A stretch of DNA of 64,000 nt from a phage. Below, piece by piece: positions 2,925 to 27,294 of the stretch. Below the pieces are notes generated by a model that saw only the letters and a program-made list of their open reading frames with translations, made no database searches and was not told the DNA's origin. The position numbers were made by a program, and so were the translations under genes. Numbering within the stretch: position 1 is the stretch's first letter; each line of letters opens with the position of its first letter. The stretch is from NCBI GenBank assembly GCA_028030915.1, contig GCA_028030915.1_4867.1. One strand, 5' to 3'.

Positions 2925-3728
2925 TTACCAGCTCCTTACACCCATGCCCATTACCCGCAGATTGGACACTTTCGGAGCCAGCTGCAGGTATTCCTGCGCG
3001 AGTTGCTGGAGAGCACCACGACGGGACTCAGTGGCAACAGCGCTGGTCGTTGTCGGATTGTACAGAATGTCTTCCAACACTTGACGACTGATAGGGCGGT
3101 CGACGTAAGTGCGAGTAGATTCCTGTGCCACTTTACTACCGCGTTGAATCGCAGAGTATTTGTTACAGATTTGCAGGCCATCTTCAATAACCCAGTCAAA
3201 GGTGACCAGTTTATCGATGCGGCGTACGATAGTCGTACCCAGACGACCTTCACGAACGATAGCACGCAGCGAGAAACACACGTTCTGATGTGGGTTCTCT
3301 AGTGCTTCCGCCAGAAGCGGACCACGTTCACGGTTAGGTTTAATCCAACCCCAAATTTCCATCACCGGCAGACCGTTACACATCTGGTCGGTCGGCTTCA
3401 CTTCTACTTCGCGAATGTGCATACACACGTTACGCGTTTCGATCCATTCGTTACGTTCGATCCACTGGGCTTCGCTCATGCCTTGTTCGTATTGCGGATG
3501 GTCTTCTTCACCGAAGAGATTCCCCGCCAAAACTTTACGCATGAAAACGTTAGAGCGCTCGAAGACATGTTTTGACTCGTTATAGGCGTAGTAAATATTC
3601 TCAGAGTTGAAAATATTCAGTGCACCTAACAGGACGTAGTAATATCCGTCCGCATCTTTCTTTAGCGTTGCCCCTTTATTGACCCCAGCGAGTGCCACGC
3701 AGTTATAACGTAGTGACAAGTTTTCCAT
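2925..3728 (-). CDS. hypothetical protein (267 aa)
   Basis: ORF track; long ORF, tight spacing. Confidence 0.6.
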   Translation of the reverse strand: MENLSLRYNCVALAGVNKGATLKKDADGYYYVLLGALNIFNSENIYYAYNESKHVFERSNVFMRKVLAGNLFGEEDHPQYEQGMSEAQWIERNEWIETRNVCMHIREVEVKPTDQMCNGLPVMEIWGWIKPNRERGPLLAEALENPHQNVCFSLRAIVREGRLGTTIVRRIDKLVTFDWVIEDGLQICNKYSAIQRGSKVAQESTRTYVDRPISRQVLEDILYNPTTTSAVATESRRGALQQLAQEYLQLAPKVSNLRVMGMGVRSW

Positions 3729-3790: not shown

Positions 3791-4519
3791 TTACCTCATA
3801 TACAAATCCTCGAGTGGCTCTGCACGTACCGGATCGACCTGGAGTGCAGAACGGATACCCTGTTTCAGTTCCACATCTGCAATCTTGGCCAACCGGGAAG
3901 TTTTGTTCAATGAACCTGAACGCAGCGGAATAAACTGCACCCGATTCATCAAATCGCTGTCTTTTTTCAGGGTGTAGCGGAAATACGTCCGCGGGTCGCC
4001 AACCTTACGCTGTGTGTGGGCAGCATAACAGTCAGCGGTGATCTGGTCGTTAAAGACCGTAAAGCCGTTCCACGTCTTAGTGTCAGACAATAGCTCAGCG
4101 TCATCTACTGCGGTGTACCAGAAAGGCCGGTTTCCGAAGTCGTAGATGTACGAAGCGATGTTGTAGACTGGCGAGGATAGCACTTGCAGCATTCGGTTGG
4201 GGAACACCACCGTGCCGGGGTCAAAACGGAACTCGTAATACGGCACACCCTGAACGTCAATTTCCTCAAACGCCGACGGGGTAATTTCAATGAACGTCGT
4301 GACGTTCGATACCCCGTAGGTTTTGCGGTCAGTGGAGATAGCGAAAATACCGACGATTTCTACTTGCGAAGAAATTACCGCCAGCTCTTTAGCCACGAAG
4401 CCAACAGGGATGTAAATGTAACATCCCCCTTTGGTGATGGTGGCCGTGCCTTGGTCCACTAAATCTGCATGAATTTTCGTCGCGTCACGACGTGCTGTTT
4501 CAATGGCGCTCACGACCAC
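3791..4519 (-). CDS. hypothetical protein (242 aa)
   Basis: ORF track; long ORF. Confidence 0.6.
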   Translation of the reverse strand: MVVSAIETARRDATKIHADLVDQGTATITKGGCYIYIPVGFVAKELAVISSQVEIVGIFAISTDRKTYGVSNVTTFIEITPSAFEEIDVQGVPYYEFRFDPGTVVFPNRMLQVLSSPVYNIASYIYDFGNRPFWYTAVDDAELLSDTKTWNGFTVFNDQITADCYAAHTQRKVGDPRTYFRYTLKKDSDLMNRVQFIPLRSGSLNKTSRLAKIADVELKQGIRSALQVDPVRAEPLEDLYMR

Positions 4520-4528
4520 CTCTCTTTA

Positions 4529-6004
4529 TTAAACTTTGCTCGGTACAGAAATAACCACACCGCCACAAATCCAATCCAGGACGTAGTTAATCATCCAGTC
4601 GGTTGCCACCTCGTCAGGTTGACGGTTAGCAATCATACCACGATGAATATCCAGCATCAGCTTGGACAGTTCGTATTCGCCGAAGACCTCAGTCGCGGAG
4701 ACTTTGATAACGAACTCAGTGATGTCTGTGGTGTCGGTTGTGAAGAACGAATCGATGAAGCTTGCCGTTGATTTCTTAACGAACTCCGGCGTTGCTACCT
4801 GACCGTCCTGTCCACGCCAGAACAGTTCAGGATCGGTTGCATCGATGGCCACGTTAAACGCTTGTTTCAGTGACTGGCGATTGCGTGTTACCCAACTGCT
4901 GTCGAGCTTAGCACGCTGAATCGCAGAACGGTGTCCCCAGGCAGCGATGTAGTCTTTCTGTTTTTCCAACAGTGAAGCTACACGCGTGGAGACATTGGTG
5001 TCACCTTCGTCCAGCTGGTAGATAGCGCCCAGCAACGCTTCAACGCTACCGCCTTTTTCCAGATAGTCGTCCATCACTTCCTGACAGATATACACTTTCT
5101 TCTCAACGTTGTCGTATCCGAAGACAATGTTACCGGTCTTGATGCGGGTAACGATGTTCTGGGTGTAGGCGTAAACCCAACCGATATAGCTGTAATGCAA
5201 CGGCAGCATCTGTGCTTTCCACTGCCCGCTATTCAGACCAGAGTCTTTCCACGGCATTTCCAGGTAGTAGCCAGAAAGCAGCATAAACAGAATGTTGCGT
5301 TTCAGGTTGTGCGGTGCCTGGTCGCTTACCGGAGAGAGCATGTTCCCTTCGAGCATGTTGCGAACGGCTTCGTTGATATTCCAACCCAGCGCATTCAACA
5401 GTTCTTTAACCAGATCGTCGTATGCTTTGCTGCCGGTTTCTGGCAGTTCGATATCGGCAGGGACGTTGGCTTTAACTGCAGGGTGCGTAGTACCATTGCC
5501 CAGCGGGTTTTCTACCGAATCAATTAATGCCTGTACCACCGGGGAGTTCAACGCCGGGTCCATACCTGCAGGCACAAGTGCCCATTCTTCGCTAACTGCC
5601 TGGTTTTCAATACCCTGGTTGTTTTGGATAACCAGTTGAACAAACGGCTGAATAACGTTACGGGCAAAGTCAAGCATACCCTGACAACGTTGGATAGCCA
5701 TACGTTTCAGTTCGAACAGTGTCGGTTCGTGGTCTTCGACGTTCAGCGTTTCTGGACCCGCTGCAGTATCTGCGATTACAGACGCTTCGCCTGTACCGGC
5801 CTGCGGCGTTTTCAGTGCAGTGATATCCGGCAGAGACTGGAAGAACTCTTCGTCAGTTATCTGCGTATCGAAAACGCTCTGCTGCGTAGTCGCTTTTGTC
5901 AGTAGACCAACAGGACTGTCAACGTCAGCTTCCAAACGAATCTGGTGTTGTTTCGCCAGTTTCATTGCGTTGGTGACAGCATTAAGTGAATATAAGTTGA
6001 TCAT
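4529..6004 (-). CDS. hypothetical protein (491 aa), possibly virion-associated
   Basis: ORF track; long ORF in operon with the large 1401-aa gene; no motif recognised. Confidence 0.65.
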   Translation of the reverse strand: MINLYSLNAVTNAMKLAKQHQIRLEADVDSPVGLLTKATTQQSVFDTQITDEEFFQSLPDITALKTPQAGTGEASVIADTAAGPETLNVEDHEPTLFELKRMAIQRCQGMLDFARNVIQPFVQLVIQNNQGIENQAVSEEWALVPAGMDPALNSPVVQALIDSVENPLGNGTTHPAVKANVPADIELPETGSKAYDDLVKELLNALGWNINEAVRNMLEGNMLSPVSDQAPHNLKRNILFMLLSGYYLEMPWKDSGLNSGQWKAQMLPLHYSYIGWVYAYTQNIVTRIKTGNIVFGYDNVEKKVYICQEVMDDYLEKGGSVEALLGAIYQLDEGDTNVSTRVASLLEKQKDYIAAWGHRSAIQRAKLDSSWVTRNRQSLKQAFNVAIDATDPELFWRGQDGQVATPEFVKKSTASFIDSFFTTDTTDITEFVIKVSATEVFGEYELSKLMLDIHRGMIANRQPDEVATDWMINYVLDWICGGVVISVPSKV

Positions 6005-6341: not shown

Positions 6342-9300
6342 TTAGTTGATTTTAGCCGGCAAGGCTGGGACGTCTTCACCATCTAAGATGCGTCCGATGT
6401 TCTCCCCACCACGATACCCGACAGCGTTGGTGGTTCCGATGCGCATGATAGAACCCACGATACGTGCGTCGACGGAATCACGACCAAAGATAATGTCGAG
6501 TTCCTGCCCGTCTTCCGTTTTGTTGGTTCCATACATCACTTCCTGAACCGTCGTTTTCAGCTGGTTAGCAATAACCATCTTATCCGCTGCTGCCATCTCT
6601 ACCCGGTGTGTGATGTAGAATCGGACACACAGGCTATTGTACGCTAACGGCACCCCCTCAACACGAAAATCACCGTTGACTCGACCGTCCTTCGGCTCGT
6701 CACGTTTGAGAGCCAGCGCAGTCTTCCGACGTATACGGTCGTATTTACGAACCATCTCCGCCAAAGACGGGGTCATATCTTCAACCTCGCCGTGGTAAAC
6801 CACTTCGATTTTGTCGATAAACCCACGAACACCAGAGCGTGGTGCAAAGGAGCTTAACTCACGCAGCGTTTCCGCTGCTTCTTTACTGAACCCGCTCATA
6901 TCGCCGGTCAGGTTGTCGGTGAAGGTGCATAGAATTGAATCCACGTCTACGTGGTCCCCTTCTTTTACCATCTCCAACAGGTTCTGGGTAAACGTCATTG
7001 TGACTTCTTTGAGTTTGGTAACATCGGCTTCAGCCTTAGCAGCGAACCGCTCACTAATGGCGTTGGAGTCCTCAATTACTTCTTCCCCTTCAATCAAAGC
7101 GACAGTTGCCAGTATCCCGTTTTTAAAGCTGACCTGCGTTGGATCGTAGATGTCTGGTTCAAAGTGTTGTTCGTTGTACGTGATAACGGCACCGGCGGGG
7201 AGTTTATCTCCGCGCTTCCATTTCGTTACCAGGGTGTGTGGGTAGTAAGTCCCTTCGTGTGGACCGAACCAACGGCCCAGTGGGAAAGCTTCTTCCTCTC
7301 CGTCGTCGTATTTGATTTTAACGTGGTCGTTAAGAACCTCCACAATCTTGCCTGGTTTATCGATTACGCGTGCGTGCTTCACAGAAGTACGGTGTGCCAC
7401 GAACTTTTCTTGCTCGGTACGATACGGTGTGGTGGTTGCGCCAACACAACTGGTCGCAGAACCGAATTGAATCCCAACGAAGTTCTGACGCTTAGCATCG
7501 TCCATCAGGGTATCCGGCACCAAGCCATCAATAAATGACAGTGCCTCACCTGGCTTCAGTTTATCGAGGTCCTTTTTAAAGGTCGTGCCGTCCACGGTGT
7601 CGTAACGCGGATTGTTTGTTGCAAAGGCGGTGATACCTACGTCGCCGTTATCGACCGTGTTACCGGAGACAATCCCCAGGTCGCTCGGTTGGAATTCACG
7701 GGTACTGTAGACCATGGTTTTGCGGTTACGACCGCCTGTACCGCCCATGGTAACGACATCCTTTTCTTTGATGTTCTGTACCGGGTTTGCGCCAGGTGCC
7801 AGCAGAACAGACGGGTCGGAGTTAATTGCACCCCACACCATGTCCTGCGTCAACTCAAACTTACGATTCGAGTTAGGCGCGTTGTTGTAGTTACGCATCG
7901 CCCGCACCATCGCGGTGTAGATGTGATACGAAATACGTTGGTTCCCGATGAACATCATTTCGTCACCGTTAATTTCCGGTAACGTGTGGTCCGTCTGCAG
8001 CAGTTCGTTAGAACGCTCCAGTAAGCCGATAAAGGTTTCCGGCTCGCCCATTTTCCTGAGGATACGCGCGTGCATGTCATCAACAAATGCGGTCCGCATC
8101 AGTTTCAGCTCTTTGATGTAGCGAGGTGTTAGCCCATCTGCATCACGTAACAGGTTCAGATAAATGTCTTCCCGGTCAACTTCCGACTCGGTATACGTGG
8201 TAAAGTGTTTGATGTAACGGTCTAAGCCGTTGACAATCATCCTCTGTTGATCGTTCTCGCAGACAATTGCAATTTTCGCATCCTGGAGACGAATAATGGA
8301 GTCGAACTGACCTTTATCGATACGTTGTCCGACAGAGAGAACCTCGTAACTGATACCAAAGTGTTTCAACATCCCGGTTAACCCGAGATAGTACGCAAAC
8401 ACAAAGCCCAGCGAGATTGATTTGCCCATCAGTGACAGTTCGGTCATTTCTCGTGGAGCCTTAGAGGTGTCCACGCCAAAGACCTCGGCGAGTGTACCCA
8501 GTGGTTCGGTCTTATCCTTATCCACTCGATAAAGCTGGGAGTTTTTATCCATACCGACGATGACATGACTCCGCGGTTTCTTCGCCACAGGTACCAGCTC
8601 GACACGGTCCGCGTCTGCCAGTTGCCCTTCGTTAAAGAATGCCGCTTTCTGTTTAATGTCAAAGCTCCATTGGTACCCAATTGCGTTGAACGCTGCTACA
8701 CGACGCGCCACTTCGGTGTACTGACGCGGCAGTTTAGACAACGGATCGAACACATTCGCCAGTTTTGCATCAGTGATTTCGGTGTTCTTTGGATCGACCG
8801 CGCGAGTAATAATCGCGTTAGTGAGCCAACGTCCGTAATCATTGACGACTTTATCACTGCGACGGACAAAGTTCTTCCCGTAGGCAGTGGTTAACGCTAC
8901 AGTATCGTGGGACACTTTACGGATAGGAAGATCAACACGCTGACGACGCATTGTATATTCCACACCATTTGCAACCCAAGTACCGTCTTCGGTTAATGCA
9001 GGAATTGAGAAACGTACCGTGGTTGGTTCTCCGCCAATCGGCTGAATACGCAACGTGTGGTGTTCGATATTCCCGGTAACGGAAATCTCTTTCTCAACAG
9101 TGTGATTGTGAATCGCCAAACCGAGACGCTGAGATGACGCTACTGCCCCCAGAATATCTTTCGGGAAGATTTCCTGGTTGTACTGACGAATGATTTGGTC
9201 GGTGGTATTTTCCGCCCAGGCTTCATCCGTAACTAAGCGTTCAATCTTCTTAGGCTCGGCTTTAACTTCGAGTTTCTTCGGATCGATGGTCAGACCTTCG

Positions 9301-10547
9301 CCGTACGTCTCTTTAGGATTGTACGGGTTGGGTAAGTTTACGAAACGTTTAGAAGATTCGTTCAGGAACTGATACGCTTTGGCGGTGACGCGGCCCGCTT
9401 CTGCCAGGCGCTCAACTTCCTGTTTAATCACAGCATCGTGTGGGATGGTGCGTTCTACGACGATGGTGGTTGGTTTGACATCTTCTTTCGGCGCTTCGAT
9501 GACCAGATCTTCTTTCTCATCGAACTCATGATCGTTCAATATATCGTCAACGTTGTCGCTTTGTGTTGCTTCATCGTCGACGATATCGAGGCTTTCTTCC
9601 GGTTTGCTGGTAACAGATTCAACAACATCGTCGTCCTCTCCCAGATGTACGCGTTCGTCCCCTTCCGGTGTAACGAACTCGTCATCTTCGTAGTCGGTAG
9701 ACGGCGGTGTGGTCATCACCGTAGTCAGTGTACGGTAGAACATTCTGCCCATCTGCACGTCAGTCAAACGACCGCCGGCAGACTTACGCATTCTTTCAAT
9801 TACACCCATGTTCATGGATGTAAAACCACCGTTGTGTGTGAAGATAAAGTTCACACGTGACAGCTGGTTCATGTCCATACCGTCAAACAGTGTTGCTTGC
9901 TGATCGCCGTACACCCAACCGAACAACTCCAGTAACCACAGGAGATTAAAGTCCTTAAAGCGCTCCAGTTTGGTTTTAACACGATCGTTATACGTCATTT
10001 TAAAACGATCGAAAGAAGGCAGTACGTTACCCAGTTCGATGATGTAGTAGTTCTGACGCATGTACTCACGTGAGTCAGTTTTCATCTGGTTAGTTATCAG
10101 TAGCTGAATGTTGTGCAGACGTTCGTACCAGGACATCAGAGTATCAGGGTAGAAATAATGCGGCAGCATCGGGGTGTAGTTTTCGATGAGCAGCACTTTT
10201 GGATCGGAACGTACCACGCCGTCTTCAATCATGCGACGAATACGACGGTTGTTACGATGGTACTGGAAGATTTGACGTTCTTGGCCAACAACAGGTTTCT
10301 TACGCGGATGGCCAATAATGCCGTCTTCAGGTAGCTGGAAGTGATGGCGAATCATCGCCGGTTTTTCCAGCTGGCCAAAACACGGTGTAGTTAACGGTGG
10401 CGCTAAAACCACCTGGTCTAAATCGATGGTGTGGTAGATAGAACCACGTGGGAGCTGGAGCTTCTCCAGCGGGATAATACGCGGGCGACCGAACTCATCG
10501 GTCTTGCGCACGGTAAAGCGCTGGTTAAACTGTTTCAGAAAAATCAT
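6342..10547 (-). CDS. large protein (1401 aa); possibly second RNA polymerase large-subunit-like or virion protein, family not resolved
   Basis: Uninterrupted 4.2-kb ORF starting 19 nt downstream of the beta'-like gene; acidic low-complexity segment (DYEDDEFVTPEGDERVHLGEDDDVVESV); no canonical beta/beta' motif confirmed by eye. Confidence 0.75.
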   Translation of the reverse strand: MIFLKQFNQRFTVRKTDEFGRPRIIPLEKLQLPRGSIYHTIDLDQVVLAPPLTTPCFGQLEKPAMIRHHFQLPEDGIIGHPRKKPVVGQERQIFQYHRNNRRIRRMIEDGVVRSDPKVLLIENYTPMLPHYFYPDTLMSWYERLHNIQLLITNQMKTDSREYMRQNYYIIELGNVLPSFDRFKMTYNDRVKTKLERFKDFNLLWLLELFGWVYGDQQATLFDGMDMNQLSRVNFIFTHNGGFTSMNMGVIERMRKSAGGRLTDVQMGRMFYRTLTTVMTTPPSTDYEDDEFVTPEGDERVHLGEDDDVVESVTSKPEESLDIVDDEATQSDNVDDILNDHEFDEKEDLVIEAPKEDVKPTTIVVERTIPHDAVIKQEVERLAEAGRVTAKAYQFLNESSKRFVNLPNPYNPKETYGEGLTIDPKKLEVKAEPKKIERLVTDEAWAENTTDQIIRQYNQEIFPKDILGAVASSQRLGLAIHNHTVEKEISVTGNIEHHTLRIQPIGGEPTTVRFSIPALTEDGTWVANGVEYTMRRQRVDLPIRKVSHDTVALTTAYGKNFVRRSDKVVNDYGRWLTNAIITRAVDPKNTEITDAKLANVFDPLSKLPRQYTEVARRVAAFNAIGYQWSFDIKQKAAFFNEGQLADADRVELVPVAKKPRSHVIVGMDKNSQLYRVDKDKTEPLGTLAEVFGVDTSKAPREMTELSLMGKSISLGFVFAYYLGLTGMLKHFGISYEVLSVGQRIDKGQFDSIIRLQDAKIAIVCENDQQRMIVNGLDRYIKHFTTYTESEVDREDIYLNLLRDADGLTPRYIKELKLMRTAFVDDMHARILRKMGEPETFIGLLERSNELLQTDHTLPEINGDEMMFIGNQRISYHIYTAMVRAMRNYNNAPNSNRKFELTQDMVWGAINSDPSVLLAPGANPVQNIKEKDVVTMGGTGGRNRKTMVYSTREFQPSDLGIVSGNTVDNGDVGITAFATNNPRYDTVDGTTFKKDLDKLKPGEALSFIDGLVPDTLMDDAKRQNFVGIQFGSATSCVGATTTPYRTEQEKFVAHRTSVKHARVIDKPGKIVEVLNDHVKIKYDDGEEEAFPLGRWFGPHEGTYYPHTLVTKWKRGDKLPAGAVITYNEQHFEPDIYDPTQVSFKNGILATVALIEGEEVIEDSNAISERFAAKAEADVTKLKEVTMTFTQNLLEMVKEGDHVDVDSILCTFTDNLTGDMSGFSKEAAETLRELSSFAPRSGVRGFIDKIEVVYHGEVEDMTPSLAEMVRKYDRIRRKTALALKRDEPKDGRVNGDFRVEGVPLAYNSLCVRFYITHRVEMAAADKMVIANQLKTTVQEVMYGTNKTEDGQELDIIFGRDSVDARIVGSIMRIGTTNAVGYRGGENIGRILDGEDVPALPAKIN

Positions 10548-10565
10548 ACATGTGCCTTATGGGTA

Positions 10566-12179
10566 TCATTTCAACAGCGCAGCAGTCGTTCTTTTAATCA
10601 CGTTGTTAACCGGATTGATTTTGAAACTGCCGTCTGTTGCAAACCAGTAGTTTTTCGAACTGACCCACTTCCGATTTTCCTCGAGCGCTTCGGTTGACAT
10701 CGGGCAGTTTGCTGAGCCGGTGTCACCATCGTAGTCACCACCCAATCCACCTAATCGGGATGGATGTGGTGCCATGGATTCCACAAAGGTTTTCACGGTA
10801 CGGTCAGGGAAGCTAATTGCACCCTTCTCTTTTAACGTGACCCAATCGTCTTCCAGTTCATGCAAATAGAGGGAAGAGGTGGTGGTCTCCAATCTTATGG
10901 TCGAGGAGTAAGTCGAACCGCGTCCCGTAACCGGATAACGCGTGATGAACGAGAAGTAGTCATTCCAAATATCGTAACCTGACAAATAGAGGAGTTCTGC
11001 TAAGCTCAGTCCGCGGACAAGCTTACGGTCACGTCCTTCCGGCAGGTCTTCAATATCGTAAAAGATTTTGAAGCTGCGTTTGTCTTGGTAGATTAATGCC
11101 ACGTAATGGTCCGGATCAATCATCAGCGGTTTATGTCGAAGCTCGCGCGCTTCCATTCTGTTGATGAGTGTTTCGATGCCATCGTCGGTAGTGAAAAGGT
11201 CATACACCCGCCCGGAGACTTCCAGGAACTCACGCTTGAGTGTTTTGGTGTTAACGCCGTATAAGTTGCCGTCCCCTGCCCGGATGTTACTGAGGTAACG
11301 TTCACGGATGTGGTATTGAGCCACAGGCAGTAATGCCTTCAGGGTTTGGTACAAACCGATACGGGTATCCGTTGGACGAATCGCATCTTCGCGACCCATG
11401 ACCTTGGAACCGGTTGAGAATGAAGACAGTACGTTACGCGTACCGTTCATTAACTTACGTGACGTCACTTTACGACGTGCAAAACCACCTTTACCGTCTT
11501 GGATGTTGAAAAAGTACATCCAGATGTCATTAAAGGTTTGTTGGAGCTTCCAGCGAACCGGGTCAGTCAGTTCCGTTCGCGTACTGCGGTCGGGGATTGC
11601 ACGTGCCAGAGAAATCAGACGGCGGTAGAGTCCGCCAATCTCTTCTTCTTGGTCGCGGCCATCCTGACGAATGACCAAATCACGTAATCCCGCAGGCAGA
11701 ACCAGCACATAGCGGCTGAGACTGACCGGACGGAACTTATTGAAGAAATCGACTGTCTCGTCGCGACGCATTGATTCGTTGCGTCCTGGCGTCAGTTGTT
11801 CGTAGTAGCGTAGGAAGAAGTTGAAGCCGGTGTCTGCACCTTTATCACTGGGCAGAGCCGGCTCGAAATCTTTTTCTTTCTCATTCCAGATAGCGAATCG
11901 CTTCCCGGAACAGATTTCTTCGTACAGCTGTTTCAGCTGGAACAACGCCAAACAAACGGTCGGCGAAATGATATCCAGTTTGATATCAATGTACGAGAAC
12001 GTTGAGTCTCGTGCCTCGCTCCCTGTGAGGCCAAATATTTCAGTTGAATACAGTCCTTCAGGGTGAAAGTTTTTCGTCAGTCCCTGAAAGGTGTCTGTTG
12101 TTGTAACTGGTTTTAAATGCGACACCAGGGACTTGTTGACGTTTAACAAGTAAAAGTCAACCCAGTTTAGCTTTCTCAC
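10566..12179 (-). CDS. multisubunit RNA polymerase beta'-like subunit, N-terminal fragment
   Basis: 537 aa; GTG start at 12179 with aggag SD; motifs aligned by eye to bacterial beta' N-terminus: EIFG (beta' KIFGP region), VLVLPAGLRDLV (beta' VLPVLPPDLRP), and GGDYDGD about 65 residues from the C-terminus (beta' NADFDGD Mg-binding motif near residue 460). Confidence 0.7.
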   Translation of the reverse strand: MRKLNWVDFYLLNVNKSLVSHLKPVTTTDTFQGLTKNFHPEGLYSTEIFGLTGSEARDSTFSYIDIKLDIISPTVCLALFQLKQLYEEICSGKRFAIWNEKEKDFEPALPSDKGADTGFNFFLRYYEQLTPGRNESMRRDETVDFFNKFRPVSLSRYVLVLPAGLRDLVIRQDGRDQEEEIGGLYRRLISLARAIPDRSTRTELTDPVRWKLQQTFNDIWMYFFNIQDGKGGFARRKVTSRKLMNGTRNVLSSFSTGSKVMGREDAIRPTDTRIGLYQTLKALLPVAQYHIRERYLSNIRAGDGNLYGVNTKTLKREFLEVSGRVYDLFTTDDGIETLINRMEARELRHKPLMIDPDHYVALIYQDKRSFKIFYDIEDLPEGRDRKLVRGLSLAELLYLSGYDIWNDYFSFITRYPVTGRGSTYSSTIRLETTTSSLYLHELEDDWVTLKEKGAISFPDRTVKTFVESMAPHPSRLGGLGGDYDGDTGSANCPMSTEALEENRKWVSSKNYWFATDGSFKINPVNNVIKRTTAALLK

Positions 12180-12208
12180 TTTTAAGCTCCTGAATTGGAA
12201 GAAACATT

Positions 12209-15200
12209 ATGGCAAAAAGAGGCAAAGACGGTTTCGATGATATCGATTTAGATAGACTCGACGACTGGGATGATTTCGGTGAACCACCCCGTCCCAAAGA
12301 CGAGAAAAAACGAAGCCCGATACTCAGTACCCTGAATGTTGCCAGGAAGTCGGCGTTGTCAACTATCTGGCCAGAAGGGAAACGTGACCAAGTTATCCTC
12401 AAGGGGATGCCTAAGCCGGCAGCTGATGCATACGAGGGCTATCAGTCAGCGGCAGCTGCAGCAAAGGACATTTACGCCCATACGAAAGGGGAGCTTGAGA
12501 AGACCGAGCGCACGCTGAAGATGCAAGCACGCCAACTCGGTCCGACGATGAAGAAATACTTGCCGGATGCAGTTACTAAGCGCTTCGACAAGTGGTCAAA
12601 ATCTGACCAGTTGGATTACCAAAATTACGATCCTAATCAGGCGTTGATGGATCGTGAACTGGGCGACGTTTTCTCAGGTGTGCCAAAGGACGCCGAAGAA
12701 CAACGTCAGCTGCAGGACAGCATGGTAGAGGATAAGCTCCGCGACAGCATCAAAGAGATGCGTGCGGATGCAATGCACCAAACCATGATTGGGATGGCGA
12801 AAGACATTAACCTGCTAACCGGGTTAAGCCGCGGGGTATTCTTAAACATCGAGCGTAAGAAACTCGAACTGCAATACCGTACCCTGTTCGCCATTCAAGA
12901 CATCGTGAAGATGAAGCAGTCGGAGTTCGATCGTAACACGCCTGCTTTAGAAGCCATCGTGAAGAACACGGCGCTGCCAGACTACGCGAAGGAAGATTTC
13001 TCAGAAGTCCGTTGGGCAAACGTTAAACGCCAGGCTGCGGAATGGATGAACCCGTTGCGTTATGCTGACGGGTTTATGGACATGATTCGCGAAAATACCA
13101 AGAAGAAAATTTCTGGTATATTTGGCGAAGGTCGTGGTTTGTTAGAGTCTGTTCTCGGCATGGGTGTTGAAGACGATTTCGGCATGAGCGACAGCTCTTC
13201 GTTGACTGCCGAACGTCGCAAAACAAATGCTCGCGATAAAGCAACTGCATGGGGTAGCGGATTCCTTGCGAAGAAACTACTCGGCCCACAAATCGAGAAA
13301 CTCCAGAAATGGACTCGTGAGGAGATGGAGAAAAATCCAGAGGTCATGAAACGCCTGCAGAAGGGCGCGTTCACCTTTGGTAATCTTTCCTCTATCTCGA
13401 ACTCAGCCATCGCAGGCGAAACGCAAGGACCGTTGGCGGATTTGTTCCGGGTACTGAATGAACTCGGTATTGTCCAACCGTTAAACCGTGAGAAAGCCTT
13501 CCTTGATGAGCGTAATGGCGAAACGTTAAGCCGTTCGGCGAAATTTGACCGTAAAGCATATCTTAGCCTGGTTGAAGTTATTCCTGCCTGGCTGGCAGAG
13601 ATTAACAAATCTGTTCGTCGGGGTTATGGCGAACATGCCGATCTGGAATACGACATCACTAGTCGTGGGTTCGTAGACCGTAAAGTGGTCGGTAACCGCG
13701 TACGCAAAGCGGTTGCAAACGATGAGCAGCGCCTGCGTCTCCAAAATTCCATTAACAGCACTGTGGATTTTGTTGACCGTGGCAAAACGCTCTCGCAGAA
13801 GGATCGACAGCATCTTGCCGACTATATCGAGTCACGTGCCTCGCAGGGCCGCGCATTCGACGTAGAAGCGATTCTGAAAGACCCGATGCATCTTCATCGG
13901 TATATGCCAGGAAACGCCGCAGAACGCATTAAGGAAGCGTTACAGGGGCATTCAGACAGTCTTACTGGTGGTAGCAACGAATTAAGTAACGAGCTGGCCC
14001 GCAAAATCTCCACAGTGCAGTCATCTATCACCCAACGTCAGGCAATTATCGACGAGGCGGTGAATATTTACGGTGAGCGAGCATTGCGCGATGCGGGTAT
14101 CTTTAACTACGACGCGAAGAGTGACACTTTCGGCGTGGATAAAGACCTGTCCGATCCCTATACCTTGTTTAATGACTTGGCAATGGGTAAGACACGCAGC
14201 GGTCGTGCGTTGACTCGTGAGCAGGAGATTCAACGTAAGCTGCAAAACGGTTCGGCGTTAGGCGACTATCTGCGCCGAATGAACCAAGGGGCAAGTGGTG
14301 GTGCCGATGACACATCGTTGCCGCCGGCTTTACGTGGCGGTGGTAAAGGTCGCGGAATGTCGCCTCGGCAGTTAGCCGCAGTTCTCTACGGTGAAACCTC
14401 GACTAACTTTGTTGAATTGCTAAGCCAACGTAACCGTGGCGAAGAAGCACCACGGAATAACTTTGACGGCATCATCGAAGCGATTCGGGGTAATAACAAC
14501 AGTGACACCCTCCAGAAAATTCTGGAACACGTCAGAAGTATGGACGAAGAAGGGGTTCTCCTGGCTTCGTTAGCAGGGGGTGCTGGTTCTGGTGATGAAG
14601 AGATGGGACCACCTCGTCCTGGTGGTGGTAGCGGTGGCGGTAAACGCCGCCGTATTATCATCGGTGAGGATGGGCTTATTCGTCGTTGGGGCGGTGTGTT
14701 GTTCGACACTGCAGCAGGAATCGGTGGCTTTGCAAAACGTGGTGTTAAAGGTGCCTGGAATAAACTGAATCAGTTCGGTGGCTGGGCGCGCGGTAAAATC
14801 GCGGGGATGGGCGGCGGAGAAGGTCCTGGTTTCTTAACCCGGATGCGTGGCCTTATCAGCGGTAGTGTCCGTGGGGGCTTTGAAGCGGTAAGCTCTTTCG
14901 GTAAAGGATTGCTGGGTATCCGCGACGTTTACGATGACCACGGTAATGTTGTTCTGCAAGGTGCACGTCTGGAAGCTGGAGAATACTATCAGGTCATTGA
15001 TGGTAAAATGGTTCAGCTGAAAACGCTGGACGACATCAAACTGGGGAGTGATATTGTTGACTCCGCAGGTAACCTGATACTAGCGGCCGCTGACTTAGCC
15101 GCTGCGGGTAAACTCCGCTACTATAAAGGCGGGAAAATCCAAGCACTGACCCAAGGTCTGGCCAGTAAGATTGGCTTAGGCTTTAATAAGGTGGCTAAGC

Positions 15201-18200
15201 TACCGAAACGGTTCCTGGATTTCCTGTCACCGAAAGCGGGCAGCATCGTTGGTAAGATTAAGGACTGGCTGAACGAGATTCCGGAAGGCGAAGAAAAGAC
15301 ACGTCTCCAGAAAGCGTTCAACCGCGTAACGAGCTTACCGGGTAAAGTGCTCGGTTTTGCGAAACGTGGTGTCGACCGTCTGAAAGACATGATTACCGAC
15401 AACCCACTGACGCGTTGGTGGAAAGGCCGTAAAGATGGTGGGGGTGGTGGTTTCAGTATCTTCTCATCAACCGGCAAGAAAACCAACCACATCCTTATCC
15501 GTATCTATAAACTGTTGAACCAACGTTTACCGGGCGAACCGGAAGACGAAAGTTGGACAGAAGAAATGGAGAAGGGTGTCGGTGGCGGTGGTAGTACGAT
15601 CGGCCGTGCAGTTCGCGGGGCGTATAATCGTGCGAAATCGTCGTTGTCTGAACGTTTTGGTGGACGTTGGTCAAGAACAAAAGCGTTCTTTGGTCGTGGA
15701 CGTGACCGTCTGCGTGGTTGGTTCAGTGGTTTCCGAGGCCGGGCTGGGGATATGCTCGATGGGTATCGTGGAGCACGGCACGACATTGCTACACGCTACG
15801 AAGTTGAACGTCGGTTGGCTGGACGCGATGATGATGTCGCTGAATTCTATCGCAGCCATTTGAACGCGAAAGGTGGCCTTTCTGGTCGTAAAGTCTACGG
15901 TGACGCGAAGGACGACCTTGAGACCGCGCGCGATGCAGCAGGTCGGGTTATCAACAAAGGGAAGAACGCTGCCAAATCTGCAGGTGCAAGATTGTTTGAA
16001 CGCTTGGACCGAATGATTGGCTTGCAAGAGATGTCATGGTTTAACACCATGCGCGAATCAGTATCCCGCGCAGGCGGTGACGATGGCATCATCCGTACCA
16101 TGTTTGCGAAGTTCGGTAAACGTAACAAGCCACCTGAAAGTGATGAAAAACGCGACTACTTTAACTTCTTCAAACGTTGGCGTGAGAAACGTAAGGAGAA
16201 GAAAGAGAAAGCGCAGGGCTCCAAAGGGAAATCTGGCGGTCTGTGGGATATGGTGAAAGGCTTACCTATCATCGGTCCCATCGTCAGTATCTTGGGAACT
16301 GTGGGTAATATACTCGGTTCTATCACGAAATGGGGTGTGTTAAAACCCGTAGGTCTTTTAGGTAAGGCTGCGTGGAATGTTGGTAAGTTCGCAGTAACCC
16401 GTTTGGCGGCACCCGCGGTGTCCGCTGTGGCAACTGCGGCATCTGCCGTCGTGACAGCAGTGGGCTGGCCGGCAATTCTTATCGGTGGTGCGATCGCCGC
16501 GGCAGGTTACGCCGCGTACAAGATCGCAACGACTACCTATACCCAGTACCTGGATAAGATGCGTTTAGCTCAGTACGGTTTCCGTGATTACGATAAGTGG
16601 TCGTCGGATGACGGGGCGAAAGCGCGTTACTTAGAAGACGCATTGCGTGAGTATGTGTCTTACGCGGAAGATGGCCAAGCCAGTCTCCGTGGGCTAGGTG
16701 GAAAAGACGTTCAGAAGTTAGCTGAAGGGTTCGGTATTAACGTTGAGGAAAAAGGCGAGATGTTGGCCTTCCAAGCGTTTATGCTTCAGCGCTTTATTCC
16801 GATTTATCTCCGCTGGATTACGGCACTGAAATCAATGCCGAACAGTATCCAGTTGGCTGACGTCGGCGATGCTAAGAAAGTATCGAAAGAGGACATGCAG
16901 ACACTCTTCAACAAAATGAAGATGACTAAGGATGCAAAAGCGTTCTCTTCGTTAACAGACCCACGCAAAGTCAACCAAGGTTTCTTCTCGAAAGCCTGGG
17001 ACGTCGTAACCTTTACACCGAAGGAGTTTTTGAGCGGTGAAGAGGTTATGGAAGTGCAGAATGAAGTCGAGCGTGCAATCAAGTTCAGAATGGATGATAA
17101 GAAAGCACGTAAGTACGGAATGGCACCGGCCGTGGAGGGGATTAAGTCCGCGGGCGTTGATGAAGCTATCAACAAACTCGGACAGTTGGATAACGAACGT
17201 AACAAAAATCTGGCGAAGGTAGAAGGTTGGGAAGACGGAACAGAGCAGGTTCAGATTCAGGTAGACTGGAATGCGGTGCTCGACCAGAAAGACATGAATG
17301 CGATGGAGTCGGTACGTTGGAAGACTTATGGTTTTACCACCATCGACAACGCCACACGCACGTTGATTACGGTATTCGAGAAGAACGTCATCAAAGACAT
17401 CGACGTGAAAACCGCAAGCTATAAAGGTGACTGGAAGAAAGCTATCGCTTCGATGGTTCCAGACGCTATCGGCACACCGAAAGAAGATCGTTTGAAGCGG
17501 TGGTTCTTTGACCGCTTCTTACCGGTATTCATGACGTACTTGGTTGGGGTGAAACGCTACCTGCCAACAGCCGATCCGCTGAACTTGAAACTGACCGGCG
17601 GTTACCTGTACGAAATCAGTTTGATGATGTCAACAGCTTATAGCTTGAAAGGTGGTATAAGACAGTCGGTGTGGGAAGTGAATATCAACCCATTAGGGGG
17701 CGATGCTAACACGAACCCATCGTCTATCAAAGCCGAGCTGGAAACGCTGAAGCTGTTGTCAAAAGAAGCTGACCTTGCCGTGCGTAACATGATTAAAGCC
17801 ATTAAAAACAATGGCAAGCGTGCACGCTGGAAGGATCGTAACAAGAACCGCAGTTCTCTGGAAGTTACCGGTGAAGATGAAGAAGACTCGAACATCAGTT
17901 CGGGAGATTCTTTGTCATCTGACGGTGCTCGCGCCTCAGGCTACATTCCATCGGGTACGAGTGGTGGTGTGCCGGGTAACTTGGGTCAAGTCGTCGATGC
18001 GGTTGGTGGTGTGCGGAACTACGCTGCAATGACCACTGGTTCGTCTTCGATTAACCTGAGTGATGTGAAAGACGGTGATTATAAGTCACTGGCTGAAAAA
18101 TACCCGATAGAAATGTTGGGTAGAAAGGGTGCGTTGAACGTTCCGAATATCAAAGCATTGATTACCGATGCAGCGAACATGATGGGCGTGCCACCTGCAG

Positions 18201-19330
18201 TGGCGTTAGCAATGGCTAAGGCGGAGTCCGGATTTAACTACACCGCTAAAAACCCGTATGCTTCGGCATCTGGGTTGTTCCAGTTTGTTAACGGCACGTG
18301 GGACGGGATGATGAAGGGGTATTCGCGGAAGTTTGGTATTCCGCGTGTTAACCAAATGGACCCGTGGGCGAATGCTATATTGGGTGTACAGTTCATTCGT
18401 GACAACATCCAACAAGCACAACGTGACCTGGGCGGTAAAGCACCACCTCCAGCCGTGGCTTATCTGTACCACTTCCTGGGTGCAGGCGGCGGTAAGAAAT
18501 TCCTGGAAGCATGGAAGCGTAATCCGAATATGGCGGCATCGAGTGCTCCTGGGATTACATCCGCAATACTGAGAGGGAATGCCAACGTCTTCTACAGCAA
18601 CGGTCGTATACGTAGCGTAGACGGGGTTATTCAGGAACTGAACCGCCGCATGGGCGCAATTTCCGCCAACGAAGTCGCTGCCGATCCGAGCAAGACGAAG
18701 GATATGGTTGCAGGCTTGTCGCCTAATTCACCAACCAACCCGGCAGCAGCAATGGGTGCACCGGCCGCTAATGACCCGAGTCTGTCGCCAGCAGATAACC
18801 TGCCAGCAGATAATGCTAATCGTCGTGATGACGCATTGACGCAGAAAGGGGCCATGGCGGCACAAGATGCAATGGCTACCGCCGCAGGTAATGTAGGACC
18901 AGCAGCGCCTACACCAACCACAGGCGGTACCGGAACATCCGATGCCTCAACAACGGCCGAAACCGTAGCGTCGCAAGCTGCAGCAGAAGGATTGTCTGCG
19001 ACGGATGTTGCTAAAGTGAAAGCAGGCGCGGAAGCGCAGGTTAACGCAGCAGCTCGTCCAGTTGCCGCTCCAACTTCTGATGCTACAGCATCGACGCCAA
19101 CGCTGAATGGTGACCCGATAGATGTTCAGCAGCTCAAGGTACTGATTCAGTCTCGCGATTACTTGAAAGAGATTCGTGATATTTTGAAATCAAATCCAAG
19201 AGCGGCAAACGACACACGGGGTGGTAGTATCCAGCAAGCGGCAAATGTGCCTCCTCCGGGCTCAGCTGCACGTAGGCAGGAAATAACCCAACCGACACCG
19301 TCGTTAAACGTAAGTCGGAAAGCAAGCTAA
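12209..19330 (+). CDS. giant virion-associated protein (2373 aa) with lytic transglycosylase (SLT) domain
   Basis: 7.1-kb ORF; SLT-like motifs AMAKAESGFNYTAKNPYASASGLFQF...AYLYHFLGAGGG encoded around 18180-18500; glycine-rich tracts (GGGGG), many K/R, Ala/Pro/Thr-rich C-terminus. Resembles the giant transglycosylase-bearing inner-virion/tail proteins of jumbo phages (from memory, e.g. phiKZ gp181). Confidence 0.85.
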   Translation: MAKRGKDGFDDIDLDRLDDWDDFGEPPRPKDEKKRSPILSTLNVARKSALSTIWPEGKRDQVILKGMPKPAADAYEGYQSAAAAAKDIYAHTKGELEKTERTLKMQARQLGPTMKKYLPDAVTKRFDKWSKSDQLDYQNYDPNQALMDRELGDVFSGVPKDAEEQRQLQDSMVEDKLRDSIKEMRADAMHQTMIGMAKDINLLTGLSRGVFLNIERKKLELQYRTLFAIQDIVKMKQSEFDRNTPALEAIVKNTALPDYAKEDFSEVRWANVKRQAAEWMNPLRYADGFMDMIRENTKKKISGIFGEGRGLLESVLGMGVEDDFGMSDSSSLTAERRKTNARDKATAWGSGFLAKKLLGPQIEKLQKWTREEMEKNPEVMKRLQKGAFTFGNLSSISNSAIAGETQGPLADLFRVLNELGIVQPLNREKAFLDERNGETLSRSAKFDRKAYLSLVEVIPAWLAEINKSVRRGYGEHADLEYDITSRGFVDRKVVGNRVRKAVANDEQRLRLQNSINSTVDFVDRGKTLSQKDRQHLADYIESRASQGRAFDVEAILKDPMHLHRYMPGNAAERIKEALQGHSDSLTGGSNELSNELARKISTVQSSITQRQAIIDEAVNIYGERALRDAGIFNYDAKSDTFGVDKDLSDPYTLFNDLAMGKTRSGRALTREQEIQRKLQNGSALGDYLRRMNQGASGGADDTSLPPALRGGGKGRGMSPRQLAAVLYGETSTNFVELLSQRNRGEEAPRNNFDGIIEAIRGNNNSDTLQKILEHVRSMDEEGVLLASLAGGAGSGDEEMGPPRPGGGSGGGKRRRIIIGEDGLIRRWGGVLFDTAAGIGGFAKRGVKGAWNKLNQFGGWARGKIAGMGGGEGPGFLTRMRGLISGSVRGGFEAVSSFGKGLLGIRDVYDDHGNVVLQGARLEAGEYYQVIDGKMVQLKTLDDIKLGSDIVDSAGNLILAAADLAAAGKLRYYKGGKIQALTQGLASKIGLGFNKVAKLPKRFLDFLSPKAGSIVGKIKDWLNEIPEGEEKTRLQKAFNRVTSLPGKVLGFAKRGVDRLKDMITDNPLTRWWKGRKDGGGGGFSIFSSTGKKTNHILIRIYKLLNQRLPGEPEDESWTEEMEKGVGGGGSTIGRAVRGAYNRAKSSLSERFGGRWSRTKAFFGRGRDRLRGWFSGFRGRAGDMLDGYRGARHDIATRYEVERRLAGRDDDVAEFYRSHLNAKGGLSGRKVYGDAKDDLETARDAAGRVINKGKNAAKSAGARLFERLDRMIGLQEMSWFNTMRESVSRAGGDDGIIRTMFAKFGKRNKPPESDEKRDYFNFFKRWREKRKEKKEKAQGSKGKSGGLWDMVKGLPIIGPIVSILGTVGNILGSITKWGVLKPVGLLGKAAWNVGKFAVTRLAAPAVSAVATAASAVVTAVGWPAILIGGAIAAAGYAAYKIATTTYTQYLDKMRLAQYGFRDYDKWSSDDGAKARYLEDALREYVSYAEDGQASLRGLGGKDVQKLAEGFGINVEEKGEMLAFQAFMLQRFIPIYLRWITALKSMPNSIQLADVGDAKKVSKEDMQTLFNKMKMTKDAKAFSSLTDPRKVNQGFFSKAWDVVTFTPKEFLSGEEVMEVQNEVERAIKFRMDDKKARKYGMAPAVEGIKSAGVDEAINKLGQLDNERNKNLAKVEGWEDGTEQVQIQVDWNAVLDQKDMNAMESVRWKTYGFTTIDNATRTLITVFEKNVIKDIDVKTASYKGDWKKAIASMVPDAIGTPKEDRLKRWFFDRFLPVFMTYLVGVKRYLPTADPLNLKLTGGYLYEISLMMSTAYSLKGGIRQSVWEVNINPLGGDANTNPSSIKAELETLKLLSKEADLAVRNMIKAIKNNGKRARWKDRNKNRSSLEVTGEDEEDSNISSGDSLSSDGARASGYIPSGTSGGVPGNLGQVVDAVGGVRNYAAMTTGSSSINLSDVKDGDYKSLAEKYPIEMLGRKGALNVPNIKALITDAANMMGVPPAVALAMAKAESGFNYTAKNPYASASGLFQFVNGTWDGMMKGYSRKFGIPRVNQMDPWANAILGVQFIRDNIQQAQRDLGGKAPPPAVAYLYHFLGAGGGKKFLEAWKRNPNMAASSAPGITSAILRGNANVFYSNGRIRSVDGVIQELNRRMGAISANEVAADPSKTKDMVAGLSPNSPTNPAAAMGAPAANDPSLSPADNLPADNANRRDDALTQKGAMAAQDAMATAAGNVGPAAPTPTTGGTGTSDASTTAETVASQAAAEGLSATDVAKVKAGAEAQVNAAARPVAAPTSDATASTPTLNGDPIDVQQLKVLIQSRDYLKEIRDILKSNPRAANDTRGGSIQQAANVPPPGSAARRQEITQPTPSLNVSRKAS

Positions 19331-25903: not shown

Positions 25904-26200
25904 TTAGATAGCGACAGGCGCAGAGATTTTTTCATGAGACTGATACCCAACGATCTCAAAATCTTCGAATTTATAATCGAAGATAGATTCCGGTTTACGC
26001 TTGATGATCAGTTTCGGTAAAGGTAACGGCTCACGCGTCAGCTGCAGCTTGGCCTGCTCCAGATGATTAGAGTAGAGATGTGTGTCACCGCCCGTCCAAA
26101 TGAAATCACCCGGCACCATGTTAACCTGCTGGGCAACCATGTGCACGAGTAATGCGTAAGACGCGATGTTGAACGGCACGCCGAGGAAAAAATCCGCACT
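25904..26200 (-). CDS. thyA: thymidylate synthase, exon 2 (C-terminal 98 aa)
   Basis: Translation [25 protein letters not shown]...[16 protein letters not shown]...[41 protein letters not shown] matches the conserved ThyA C-terminus; no ATG, so it must be joined to exon 1 by splicing. Confidence 0.8.
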
Positions 26201-27294
26201 CAAAACGTTCAGATGTGGTCGTTAATCACATCCCGCGCCATTACGCGCAGCTGCATGTCGCCATGCAGATCAGACTATATCACCATCTGCGAAACTGCTG
26301 CGCAGATGCTCTCCCATTTCGAGGACACTTGTCCCCTACGAACAATCACGTTCTAGTCGTTGGGCATTTATCTAACCACTGCCATGCGGTGTACTTTGGA
26401 TTTTCACTATTAATTCGCCAAAGCACGACAGAAGGGCTTTTACCAAGTTTCCTTCCTGCGTCAGTGATACTCTCGTACACTACGTCGTCGATTAATACTG
26501 GCCGGATATTAGGCGGTTTGTTACCGAGCTTTTTCTCCGCTATGCGCTTGCGAGTTTCCTCGCTGTGGGTTTTGCCAAAGAACGAATTCTTCTCTCCCAC
26601 ACGCCCTGCGGCATGGAGAGAGATTTTCCTACGATGCTCGTCACTAAACTTCCGCCCCAAATGAGGGCTGTCATTAGTGAGATACCACTCGGTGACTTTA
26701 CGCCTGATTTTCTCACGCGCTTCGTCCGAATGTGTTTTACCAAACATCCCATTCATTTTACCAATCCTGCCGTAAACCTTTTTACGTTCAGATGGCGACA
26801 TCGAGTCATATCGTTCGCGAAGCGTTGCTGTTATTTTCGCGATTATTTCATCTCGTCTTGGATGGTTGGTAATACAGTCGTAATAATTCTCAATGTTGAC
26901 GAAAGATTGATCTAAAGCAATCTGTTCTTGTTCTCTCGCACGTGCTTCTGCTTTAGAGGCACAACGAATTAACGTAGGATTGCCATCGAATACAAATCCT
27001 TCATCCCATGCTTTTTGCAGGAACCAGTTATGGTGCTTACCTTGACGCAACTCTTTCAGGTGGCGTTTTAGCCGCTTTTTGAATTGCGTGGTTTCACCAA
27101 TGTATCGACGCTTCTCATCACCTTTTACAAAGGTGAGAATGTACAATATTGCCATGATGTTGTCCTCTTAAATCAGATTAAAAGGTACACCTAGCAATGG
27201 TTAGAATTTAGCAACGGGTTCTCTCCGTAGAGTGCTTCCCGTTTTAGGGAGTGTTTTTCGACTAGGGTCGCCCCTAGAAGGCGCAGCTTAGTTT
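26201..27294 (-). mobile_element. group I intron (T4 td-like) interrupting thymidylate synthase, carrying a homing endonuclease gene
   Basis: 1094 nt between ThyA exons; exon 1 ends with U (cag cgt), intron ends with G (gttttg), and joining restores ...[17 protein letters not shown]. The 5' part contains aaacgggaagcactctacggagagaacccgttgctaaatt, very close to the T4 td intron core; the 3' part contains gatatagtc (P7-like). Confidence 0.8.
26346..27155 (-). CDS. GIY-YIG homing endonuclease (I-TevI-like), intron-encoded
   Basis: 269 aa; N-terminus ILYILTF...RYIGETTQFKKRLKRHLKELRQGKHH aligns with I-TevI GIYQI...VYVGSAKDFEKRWKRHFKDLEKGCH; C-terminal repeated NUMOD-like motifs (MNGMFGKTHSDEAREKI, NSFFGKTHSEETRKRI); SD aagagga before ATG 27155. 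Confidence 0.85.
   Translation of the reverse strand: MAILYILTFVKGDEKRRYIGETTQFKKRLKRHLKELRQGKHHNWFLQKAWDEGFVFDGNPTLIRCASKAEARAREQEQIALDQSFVNIENYYDCITNHPRRDEIIAKITATLRERYDSMSPSERKKVYGRIGKMNGMFGKTHSDEAREKIRRKVTEWYLTNDSPHLGRKFSDEHRRKISLHAAGRVGEKNSFFGKTHSEETRKRIAEKKLGNKPPNIRPVLIDDVVYESITDAGRKLGKSPSVVLWRINSENPKYTAWQWLDKCPTTRT

Follow-up and report, generated by a model that had tools for sequence, protein, structure and literature searches.

The window, the whole stretch of 64,000 nucleotides that was analysed, comes from an SPN3US-like (Seoulvirus) jumbo phage. Over the locus described here its DNA is 98-99% identical to that of SPN3US and its relatives (98.4% to SPN3US, 99.1% to the closest record). 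Two neighbouring open reading frames on the minus strand, one of 537 aa with a GTG start (10566-12179) and one of 1401 aa with an ATG start (6342-10547), are positioned under SPN3US_0240 and SPN3US_0241. Both are present exactly where a preliminary description of this DNA had placed them. Their adjacency also holds, but the spacer that had been given as 19 nt measures 18 nt (10548-10565). A divergent transglycosylase gene begins 29 nt from the 537-aa frame. No Rfam family matches anywhere in the window at the gathering thresholds. The features, with vRNAP denoting a virion-packaged multisubunit RNA polymerase, are assigned as follows.

10566-12179, minus strand: vRNAP beta' N-terminal subunit (beta'N), 537 aa, ortholog of SPN3US gp240 and phiKZ gp180
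10722-10742, minus strand: catalytic Mg-binding motif GGDYDGD, beta'N residues 480-486, from alignment and conservation
6342-10547, minus strand: vRNAP beta N-terminal (major) subunit (betaN), 1401 aa, ortholog of SPN3US gp241 and phiKZ gp178
9693-10547, minus strand: phage-specific N-terminal domain of betaN, residues 1-285
9444-9692, minus strand: acidic, predicted-disordered linker of betaN, approximately residues 286-368, from composition and pLDDT
6549-6590, minus strand: double-psi beta-barrel active-site segment AADKMVIANQLKTT, betaN residues 1320-1333, from the alignment to Thermus beta
3791-4519, minus strand: homolog of SPN3US gp244 and phiKZ gp176, candidate vRNAP beta'C piece, from position, PHROG 2926 and literature
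36208-36876, minus strand: homolog of SPN3US gp218, vRNAP betaC piece, 222 aa, from position and length, PHROG 3233 and literature
12209-19330, plus strand: divergent gene of 2373 aa with an SLT transglycosylase domain (PF01464, E 2e-9)

A Shine-Dalgarno sequence, GGAG, precedes the GTG start of the 537-aa frame (12179) by 7 nt. For gp240 a length of 519 aa is given in the table of the 2016 paper (PMC5105663), while GenBank and the window support 537 aa; the start that yields 519 aa is less likely, since GGAG precedes the GTG at 12179 and the alignment to the family profile already begins at residue 3.

The 537-aa protein is the N-terminal fragment of beta' and ends about 50 residues past the catalytic Asp triad. 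In tblastn searches it is 99.8% identical to SPN3US gp240 and finds matches in 325 phage records, while 900 database proteins match at E<=1e-3, and the frames are therefore not chance ones. Identity to phiKZ gp180 is 33.6% (E 4e-65), and the protein belongs to PHROG 2986 (E 3e-238). A profile built from the family, A1, reaches the beta' chain of the AR9 non-virion RNA polymerase (nvRNAP; 7s01_d and 7s00_d) at E 1e-12, followed by beta' of plastids and bacteria (E 1e-10 to 1e-8). The fold gives the same picture: for an AF2 model with pLDDT 80 the best Foldseek match is 7s01_d (E 6e-16), and after it come split beta' chains from cyanobacteria and plastids as well as the beta' of bacteria. In this search of the PDB 581 chains are matched at E<=1e-3, and all 50 of the matches listed are RNA polymerase entries.

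The motifs by which the preliminary description had recognised beta' are present and in the order claimed: EIFG at residues 47-50, VLVLPAGLRDLV at 158-169 and GGDYDGD at 480-486. The last one does lie near the C-terminus, but not at the suggested distance of about 65 residues, as it starts 58 and ends 51 residues before the end. In alignments GGDYDGD falls on NADFDGD in plastid beta' and on SGDYDGD in the AR9 chain. Among 30 homologs, the most distant at 37% identity, D482 never varies, while D484 and D486 are kept in at least 90%.

The window's own sequences of both proteins match no Rpb1, Rpb2 or other RNA polymerase family of Pfam at E<=1. When the homologs of beta'N are scanned singly, PF04997 appears in 5 of 30 (best E 1.1e-5), and a single-sequence phmmer search of the PDB with beta'N gives only non-significant matches to plastid beta' (E 0.4-0.9). 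It is thus profiles, fold and orthology that carry the assignment. By these three the beta' N-terminal fragment of the preliminary description is borne out, and region 10566-12179 does match beta' N-terminal sequences once profile A1 is used. The search with Rpb1 and Rpb2 families that had been proposed as a check turned out to be uninformative, as no direct match exists and the relationship is reached only through the family profile or the fold.

The N-terminal zinc-binding Cys cluster of bacterial beta' is absent from beta'N, which has only three Cys (76, 90 and 492) and no CxxC pairs after IFG. This sets the protein apart from cellular beta' and has no bearing on its membership in the phage enzyme family.

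The 1401-aa protein is the N-terminal, major fragment of beta, equal to SPN3US gp241 and phiKZ gp178. It is about 99% identical to gp241-type proteins, falls in PHROG 3148 (E 0) and matches phiKZ gp178 over the full length with 30% identity (E 0). Its family profile, A2, finds Thermus beta (1iw7_C; E 1.4e-11) through four collinear segments, which align in order to Thermus residues 117-139, 396-463, 530-654 and 822-880. Conserved regions of beta are thus covered collinearly, including the fork-loop region and the barrel with its GDK...NKG lysines, where AADKMVIANQLKTT aligns to GDKLANRHGNKGV of Thermus; D1322, K1323, Q1329 and K1331 are invariant among 21 homologs. The alignment stops near residue 880-920 of the 1119 in Thermus beta, so the protein is not a complete beta. 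Single sequences are again of little help: a weak PF00562 match is found in 1 of the 21 homologs, and phmmer against the PDB returns noise with nothing significant. The preliminary description had tentatively called this frame another RNA polymerase piece, which is correct, and region 6342-10547 matches Thermus beta rather than a clearly unrelated family.

The first 400 or so residues of betaN have no counterpart in beta. Three parts make up this extension: a folded domain (about 285 aa), an acidic linker that is predicted to be disordered, with 15-16 Asp/Glu per 40 residues (pLDDT below 50 at residues 287-332 and 353-368), and a helical segment. The fold of the first 285 residues or so is confidently predicted, and no solved structure matched it. 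Two BFVD proteins of 461-462 aa align over their whole length to the extension, which suggests that in some phages it may be a protein on its own. Further, 201phi2-1 has been reported to cleave its counterpart of the extension at residue 275. We tentatively propose that residues 1-285 are an undescribed fold and a built-in capsid-targeting or assembly module, still attached in SPN3US-type phages, that might bring the five-subunit polymerase into the prohead; such a role in head targeting is a possible reading, not the probable one.

Within the 64-kb window four pieces of the five-piece vRNAP set are found: beta'N, betaN, the candidate beta'C and betaC. The homolog of gp218, to which the missing C-terminal part of beta is assigned by PHROG and literature, corresponds in position and length to SPN3US_0218 and matches PHROG 3233, "RNA polymerase beta subunit", at E 9e-94; gp218 is called betaC in the literature (PMC5105663, PMC5694885). 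The homolog of gp244 corresponds in position to SPN3US_0244 and matches PHROG 2926, "virion structural protein", at E 1e-94, and gp244 has been assigned as the fifth vRNAP subunit (PMC5105663, PMC5694885). Single-sequence searches of the PDB with these two proteins are uninformative, so that their roles are drawn from published work and the PHROG families. The numbering of the SPN3US genes places the homolog of gp42 (beta'M) outside the window.

The order of the genes is collinear with phiKZ, where gp182-gp181 stand on one side of the divergent spacer and gp180-(gp179)-gp178-gp177.1-gp177-gp176-gp175, the last being the head protease, on the other. The phiKZ region from gp182 to gp175 matches window coordinates 21601 down to 2925. 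The synteny of head genes is kept, with the tail lysin facing beta'N, betaN, further genes, beta'C and the prohead protease. Together with the divergent transglycosylase gene this confirms the gp180/gp181 neighbourhood to which the preliminary description had pointed, and the comparison it had suggested with phiKZ and SPN3US finds collinearity in both.

Identity, fold and synteny of the vRNAP pieces can be read directly from this DNA, and we are confident, to the point of near certainty, that the two frames encode two of the five polypeptides of the vRNAP of an SPN3US-like jumbo phage. The earlier suggestion of a beta' split as in phiKZ-like polymerases fits this well, the protein being the ortholog of the virion subunits gp180 and gp240.

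For these orthologs much is published. In SPN3US heads gp240, gp241, gp218, gp42 and gp244 were all detected by mass spectrometry (PMC5105663). An amber mutation in gp241, gp218 or gp244, all three essential, removes all five from the particles and makes these non-viable, and the vRNAP subunits are co-dependent for packaging (PMC5105663, PMC5694885). In phiKZ, Gp180 co-precipitates with Gp178, Gp80 and Gp149, is present in about 10 copies per virion and goes into the cell with the DNA (PMC10612078). By analogy with SPN3US, location in the virion, essentiality of the gp241, gp218 and gp244 homologs and co-dependent packaging would be expected here as well, and by analogy with phiKZ so would injection.

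The beta'N piece carries the N-terminal regions of beta' and the double-psi beta-barrel, in which the DYDGD loop binds Mg, and it ends some 50 residues further on. Past its extension of about 400 residues, betaN corresponds to roughly the first 80% of bacterial beta, with both the fork-loop region and the barrel that bears the conserved lysines. What is left of beta is assigned to the gp218 homolog, and what is left of beta' to the homologs of gp42 and gp244, all at other places in the genome. A mechanism can be proposed from the orthologs: the pieces would be made in the middle or late phase, join into one complex, be taken into the prohead and later be ejected with the DNA. The ejected vRNAP would then transcribe early phage genes with no need of the host's RNA polymerase or of a sigma factor.

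The predicted enzyme of this phage is presumably active in catalysis. It is conceivable that the proteins, though derived from a polymerase, now work chiefly in the structure of the head or in ejection, and that catalysis has been lost or has become secondary: the protein content of heads is affected pleiotropically when gp241 is missing (PMC5105663), betaN carries a large non-polymerase extension with a fold that lacks a solved match, and both proteins are too diverged for detection by Pfam. However, homologs down to 22-37% identity keep the Asp triad of beta' and the barrel Lys of beta without exception or nearly so, which indicates selection on the active site. Further, SPN3US particles without vRNAP look intact yet are non-viable (PMC5694885), which fits a function after ejection, and related phages infect despite rifampicin (PMC5105663, PMC13282480). 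We therefore regard a mainly structural role as very improbable.

That both proteins instead belong to the second, non-virion polymerase, made after infection and transcribing middle and late genes, is extremely unlikely even though jumbo phages of this group have genes for both polymerases (PMC7598289) and the best solved-structure match of beta'N is the non-virion enzyme of AR9, because the close orthologs gp240 (99.8%) and gp241 (about 99%) come from purified heads (PMC5105663), the genes stand in the head-gene block beside the prohead protease and are syntenic with phiKZ gp180/gp178, annotated as structural head proteins, phiKZ Gp180 is kept out of the phage nucleus where the nvRNAP works (PMC10612078), and AR9 ranks first probably only for want of a vRNAP chain, as the PDB copy searched yielded no vRNAP structure.

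With the vRNAP assignment nothing new is added for the field: publications of 2016-2017 on SPN3US, and earlier ones on phiKZ, already describe the genes, the split architecture, the location in the virion and that gp241 is essential. The value of the case lies mainly in calibration, since a very diverged beta' fragment was recognised from three short motifs where Pfam finds nothing. A polymerase of about 300 kDa or larger would have to be packed in the head, pass the tail tube and refold.

Compared with known systems, SPN3US gp240/gp241 are essentially the same genes, with equal lengths (537 and 1401 aa), order, spacing and neighbours (gp238-gp245), and only a few substitutions separate them from the genes in the window. 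The orthologs in phiKZ, gp180 (beta'N, 33.6%) and gp178 (betaN, 30%), are collinear over the full length, including the betaN extension, and are likewise divergent from the giant tail lysin gp181 and placed upstream of gp177, gp176 and the gp175 protease. However, phiKZ has an extra gene, gp179, between the subunit genes, its divergent spacer is 75 nt against 29 nt, and its reported catalytic motif is DFDGD (PMC10612078) where the phage in the window has DYDGD.

More distant is the beta'N of the AR9 nvRNAP (PDB 7S00, 7S01), the best match among solved structures by both profile and fold, in which beta' is likewise split shortly after the DYDGD catalytic loop. This enzyme is a non-virion one from a uracil-DNA Bacillus phage, its identity with beta'N is 13-14%, and the global TM-scores of 0.3-0.4 are low, as expected of an isolated subunit model. 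The split beta' of cyanobacteria and plastids (rpoC1 product, gamma) is a natural beta' split with NADFDGD in its N-terminal part, and is among the top matches in sequence and fold. There the split point lies further downstream, rpoC1-type chains having 610-690 aa and beta'N 537 aa, and the cellular enzymes use alpha, omega and sigma, which reviews report to be absent from the RNA polymerases of jumbo phages (PMC13282480).

The two genes of the feature are separated by a spacer of 18 nt, and several nearby or more distant genes can be linked to the virion-packaged multisubunit RNA polymerase (vRNAP).

Genes discussed, by position in the window
10566-12179, minus strand: beta'N, 537 aa, GTG start
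6342-10547, minus strand: betaN, 1401 aa, ATG start, in tandem with beta'N
12209-19330, opposite to beta'N: divergent lysin gene, 2373 aa, SLT transglycosylase domain
4529-6004, minus strand: homolog of SPN3US gp243 and phiKZ gp177 (PHROG 3841), between vRNAP genes
3791-4519: gp244 homolog, candidate vRNAP piece (PHROG 2926, virion structural protein)
2925-3728: prohead protease (PHROG 3014)
36208-36876: gp218 homolog, candidate vRNAP piece (PHROG 3233, RNA polymerase beta subunit)

The preliminary description had reported both reading frames and three motifs in beta'N; the coordinates confirm them, with trivial numerical differences. The motifs follow in the order EIFG (residues 47-50), VLVLPAGLRDLV (158-169) and GGDYDGD (480-486), the last ending 51 residues ahead of the C-terminus. 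Upstream of the GTG start there is a GGAG at 7-nt spacing. Between the start codon of beta'N and that of the divergent lysin gene lie only 29 nt (12180-12208), compared with 75 nt in phiKZ, so any promoters of this pair must be very compact or sit within the adjoining coding sequences.

PHROG 2986, 'RNA polymerase beta subunit', covers the 537-aa protein end to end (E 3e-238). The suggested search for Rpb1 and Rpb2 families gave no match when this single sequence was scanned against Pfam, but profiles built from homolog alignments did match beta' and beta. The beta'N profile (30 aligned homologs, identity down to 37%) scores best against the N-terminal beta' subunit of AR9's non-virion RNA polymerase (nvRNAP), with E 1e-12, against about 1e-10 for plastid and cyanobacterial split beta' and about 1e-8 for bacterial beta'. 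The VLPxxLR, GKxG...R...GxR and DxDGD blocks are each aligned between the profile and beta'. Fold comparison of an AlphaFold model made from the 30-homolog alignment (pLDDT 80) gives 581 PDB chains at E<=1e-3. AR9 7s01_d leads with 6e-16, ahead of cyanobacterial and plastid rpoC1 products and of bacterial beta', and each of the best 50 of the 581 is an RNA polymerase entry. Among the PDB chains searched, the AR9 subunit is the best match by both profile and fold. D482 never varies among the 30 homologs, and D484 and D486 hardly do. The protein has no equivalent of the zinc cluster at the N-terminus of bacterial beta'. Taken together, profile match, fold match and Asp conservation identify the 537-aa protein as a beta' fragment, as had been proposed, ending about 50 residues past the catalytic loop.

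The 1401-aa protein, earlier considered a possible further polymerase piece, is beta-N. It is matched full length by PHROG 3148, and a profile built on 21 homologs (identity down to 22%) matches Thermus beta with E 1.4e-11 in four segments in the correct order. In the profile alignment these correspond to Thermus beta 117-139, 396-463 (the fork-loop block), 530-654 and 822-880 (the barrel, with AADK...QLK aligned to GDK...NKG). D1322, K1323 and K1331 are invariant among the 21 homologs. Its end corresponds to about beta residue 900, which leaves out the C-terminal fifth of beta.

In SPN3US, a Salmonella jumbo phage, the N-terminal domain of beta-N (gp241), about 400 residues long, was hypothesised to target the complex to the head (PMC5105663). 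The prohead protease leaves SPN3US betaN uncut and cuts the 201phi2-1 homolog at TFE-275 (PMC5694885); this site coincides with the predicted domain boundary at about residue 285. Two BFVD proteins, A0A7G8ALW9 (461 aa) and A0A6B7ER73 (462 aa), align over their whole length to beta-N residues 1-490 (E 2e-24 and 2e-21, target-normalised TM 0.5), which suggests that in some phages the N-terminal extension is a protein of its own, through a further split of the subunit.

Single-sequence PDB searches of the gp218 and gp244 homologs were uninformative; their candidate roles come from PHROG families and the literature. The gp243 homolog corresponds to a SPN3US head protein that is reportedly essential and on which the incorporation of gp53 and gp54, two abundant ejection proteins, depends (PMC5694885).

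Elsewhere in the window, the thymidylate synthase gene (~25904-28014) contains a minus-strand insertion of ~1095 nt (26201-27295), which SPN3US lacks by blastn. It encodes a 269-aa endonuclease (26346-27155) with GIY-YIG, NUMOD3 and I-TevI-type DNA-binding domains. A group I intron match (RF00028, 26251-26478, E 7e-5) reaches 28.2 bits, below the gathering score of 50. Coverage of the insertion stays at or below 8% in every one of 50,697 phage genomes. It resembles a T4 td-style intron that carries a homing endonuclease, not seen in the other Seoulvirus records. At its low-coordinate end, 81 nt are 88% identical to 201phi2-1 (EU197055.1, 197588-197668) inside an 'RNA polymerase beta subunit' gene, a hint of related group I introns within RNA polymerase genes of other jumbo phages.

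By megablast against 50,697 phage records, the two-gene region has full-length matches of 97-99% identity in SPN3US-like phages (vB_EcoM_EC001 99.1%, SPN3US 98.4%). The two genes have been described before, as SPN3US gp240 and gp241 (SPN3US_0240 and SPN3US_0241), whose neighbours there are gp239 (giant 'tail fibre'), gp238 and gp242-gp245; the whole window corresponds to SPN3US from about 160 kb to 224 kb, reverse-complemented. In the Salmonella phages SPFM1, 6, 8, 9 and 12 (hits P0101, P0102, P0104, P0155-P0158), BLASTP coverage of both proteins is only 3-12% despite high HMMER scores, and tblastn finds the gene in 4-5 pieces. The simplest explanation is that these assemblies contain frameshifting sequence errors.

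For the orthologs, the literature documents head location, an essential role of gp241, gp218 and gp244, co-dependent incorporation and injection. SPN3US heads contain, by mass spectrometry, gp240 (beta'N), gp241 (betaN), gp218 (betaC), gp42 (beta'M) and gp244 (beta'C); particles from an amber mutant of gp241, an essential protein, carry no vRNAP subunit (PMC5105663). Knockout of gp218 or gp244 removes all five subunits and leaves intact-looking, non-viable particles (PMC5694885). PhiKZ Gp180 has a DFDGD motif and co-precipitates with Gp178, Gp80 and Gp149; a virion contains ~10 copies of it, and it passes into the cell together with the DNA (PMC10612078). Reviews describe a vRNAP core that consists of five or more polypeptides, is responsible for early-gene transcription and has no alpha, sigma or omega homologs (PMC7598289, PMC13282480). 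Here the five pieces would form a catalytic core with two barrels, the N-terminal extension of beta-N may mediate prohead incorporation, and the vRNAP would be ejected with the DNA and transcribe early genes with no need of the host polymerase.

Orthology with phiKZ extends to both proteins: beta'N is 33.6% identical to gp180 (E 4e-65), and betaN 30% identical to gp178 over its full length. The proposed resemblance to the phiKZ gp180/gp181 neighbourhood is borne out by gene order, since gp238-gp239 / gp240-gp241-gp242-gp243-gp244-gp245 (SPN3US names) is conserved relative to gp182-gp181 / gp180-gp179-gp178-gp177.1-gp177-gp176-gp175 (head protease) in phiKZ.
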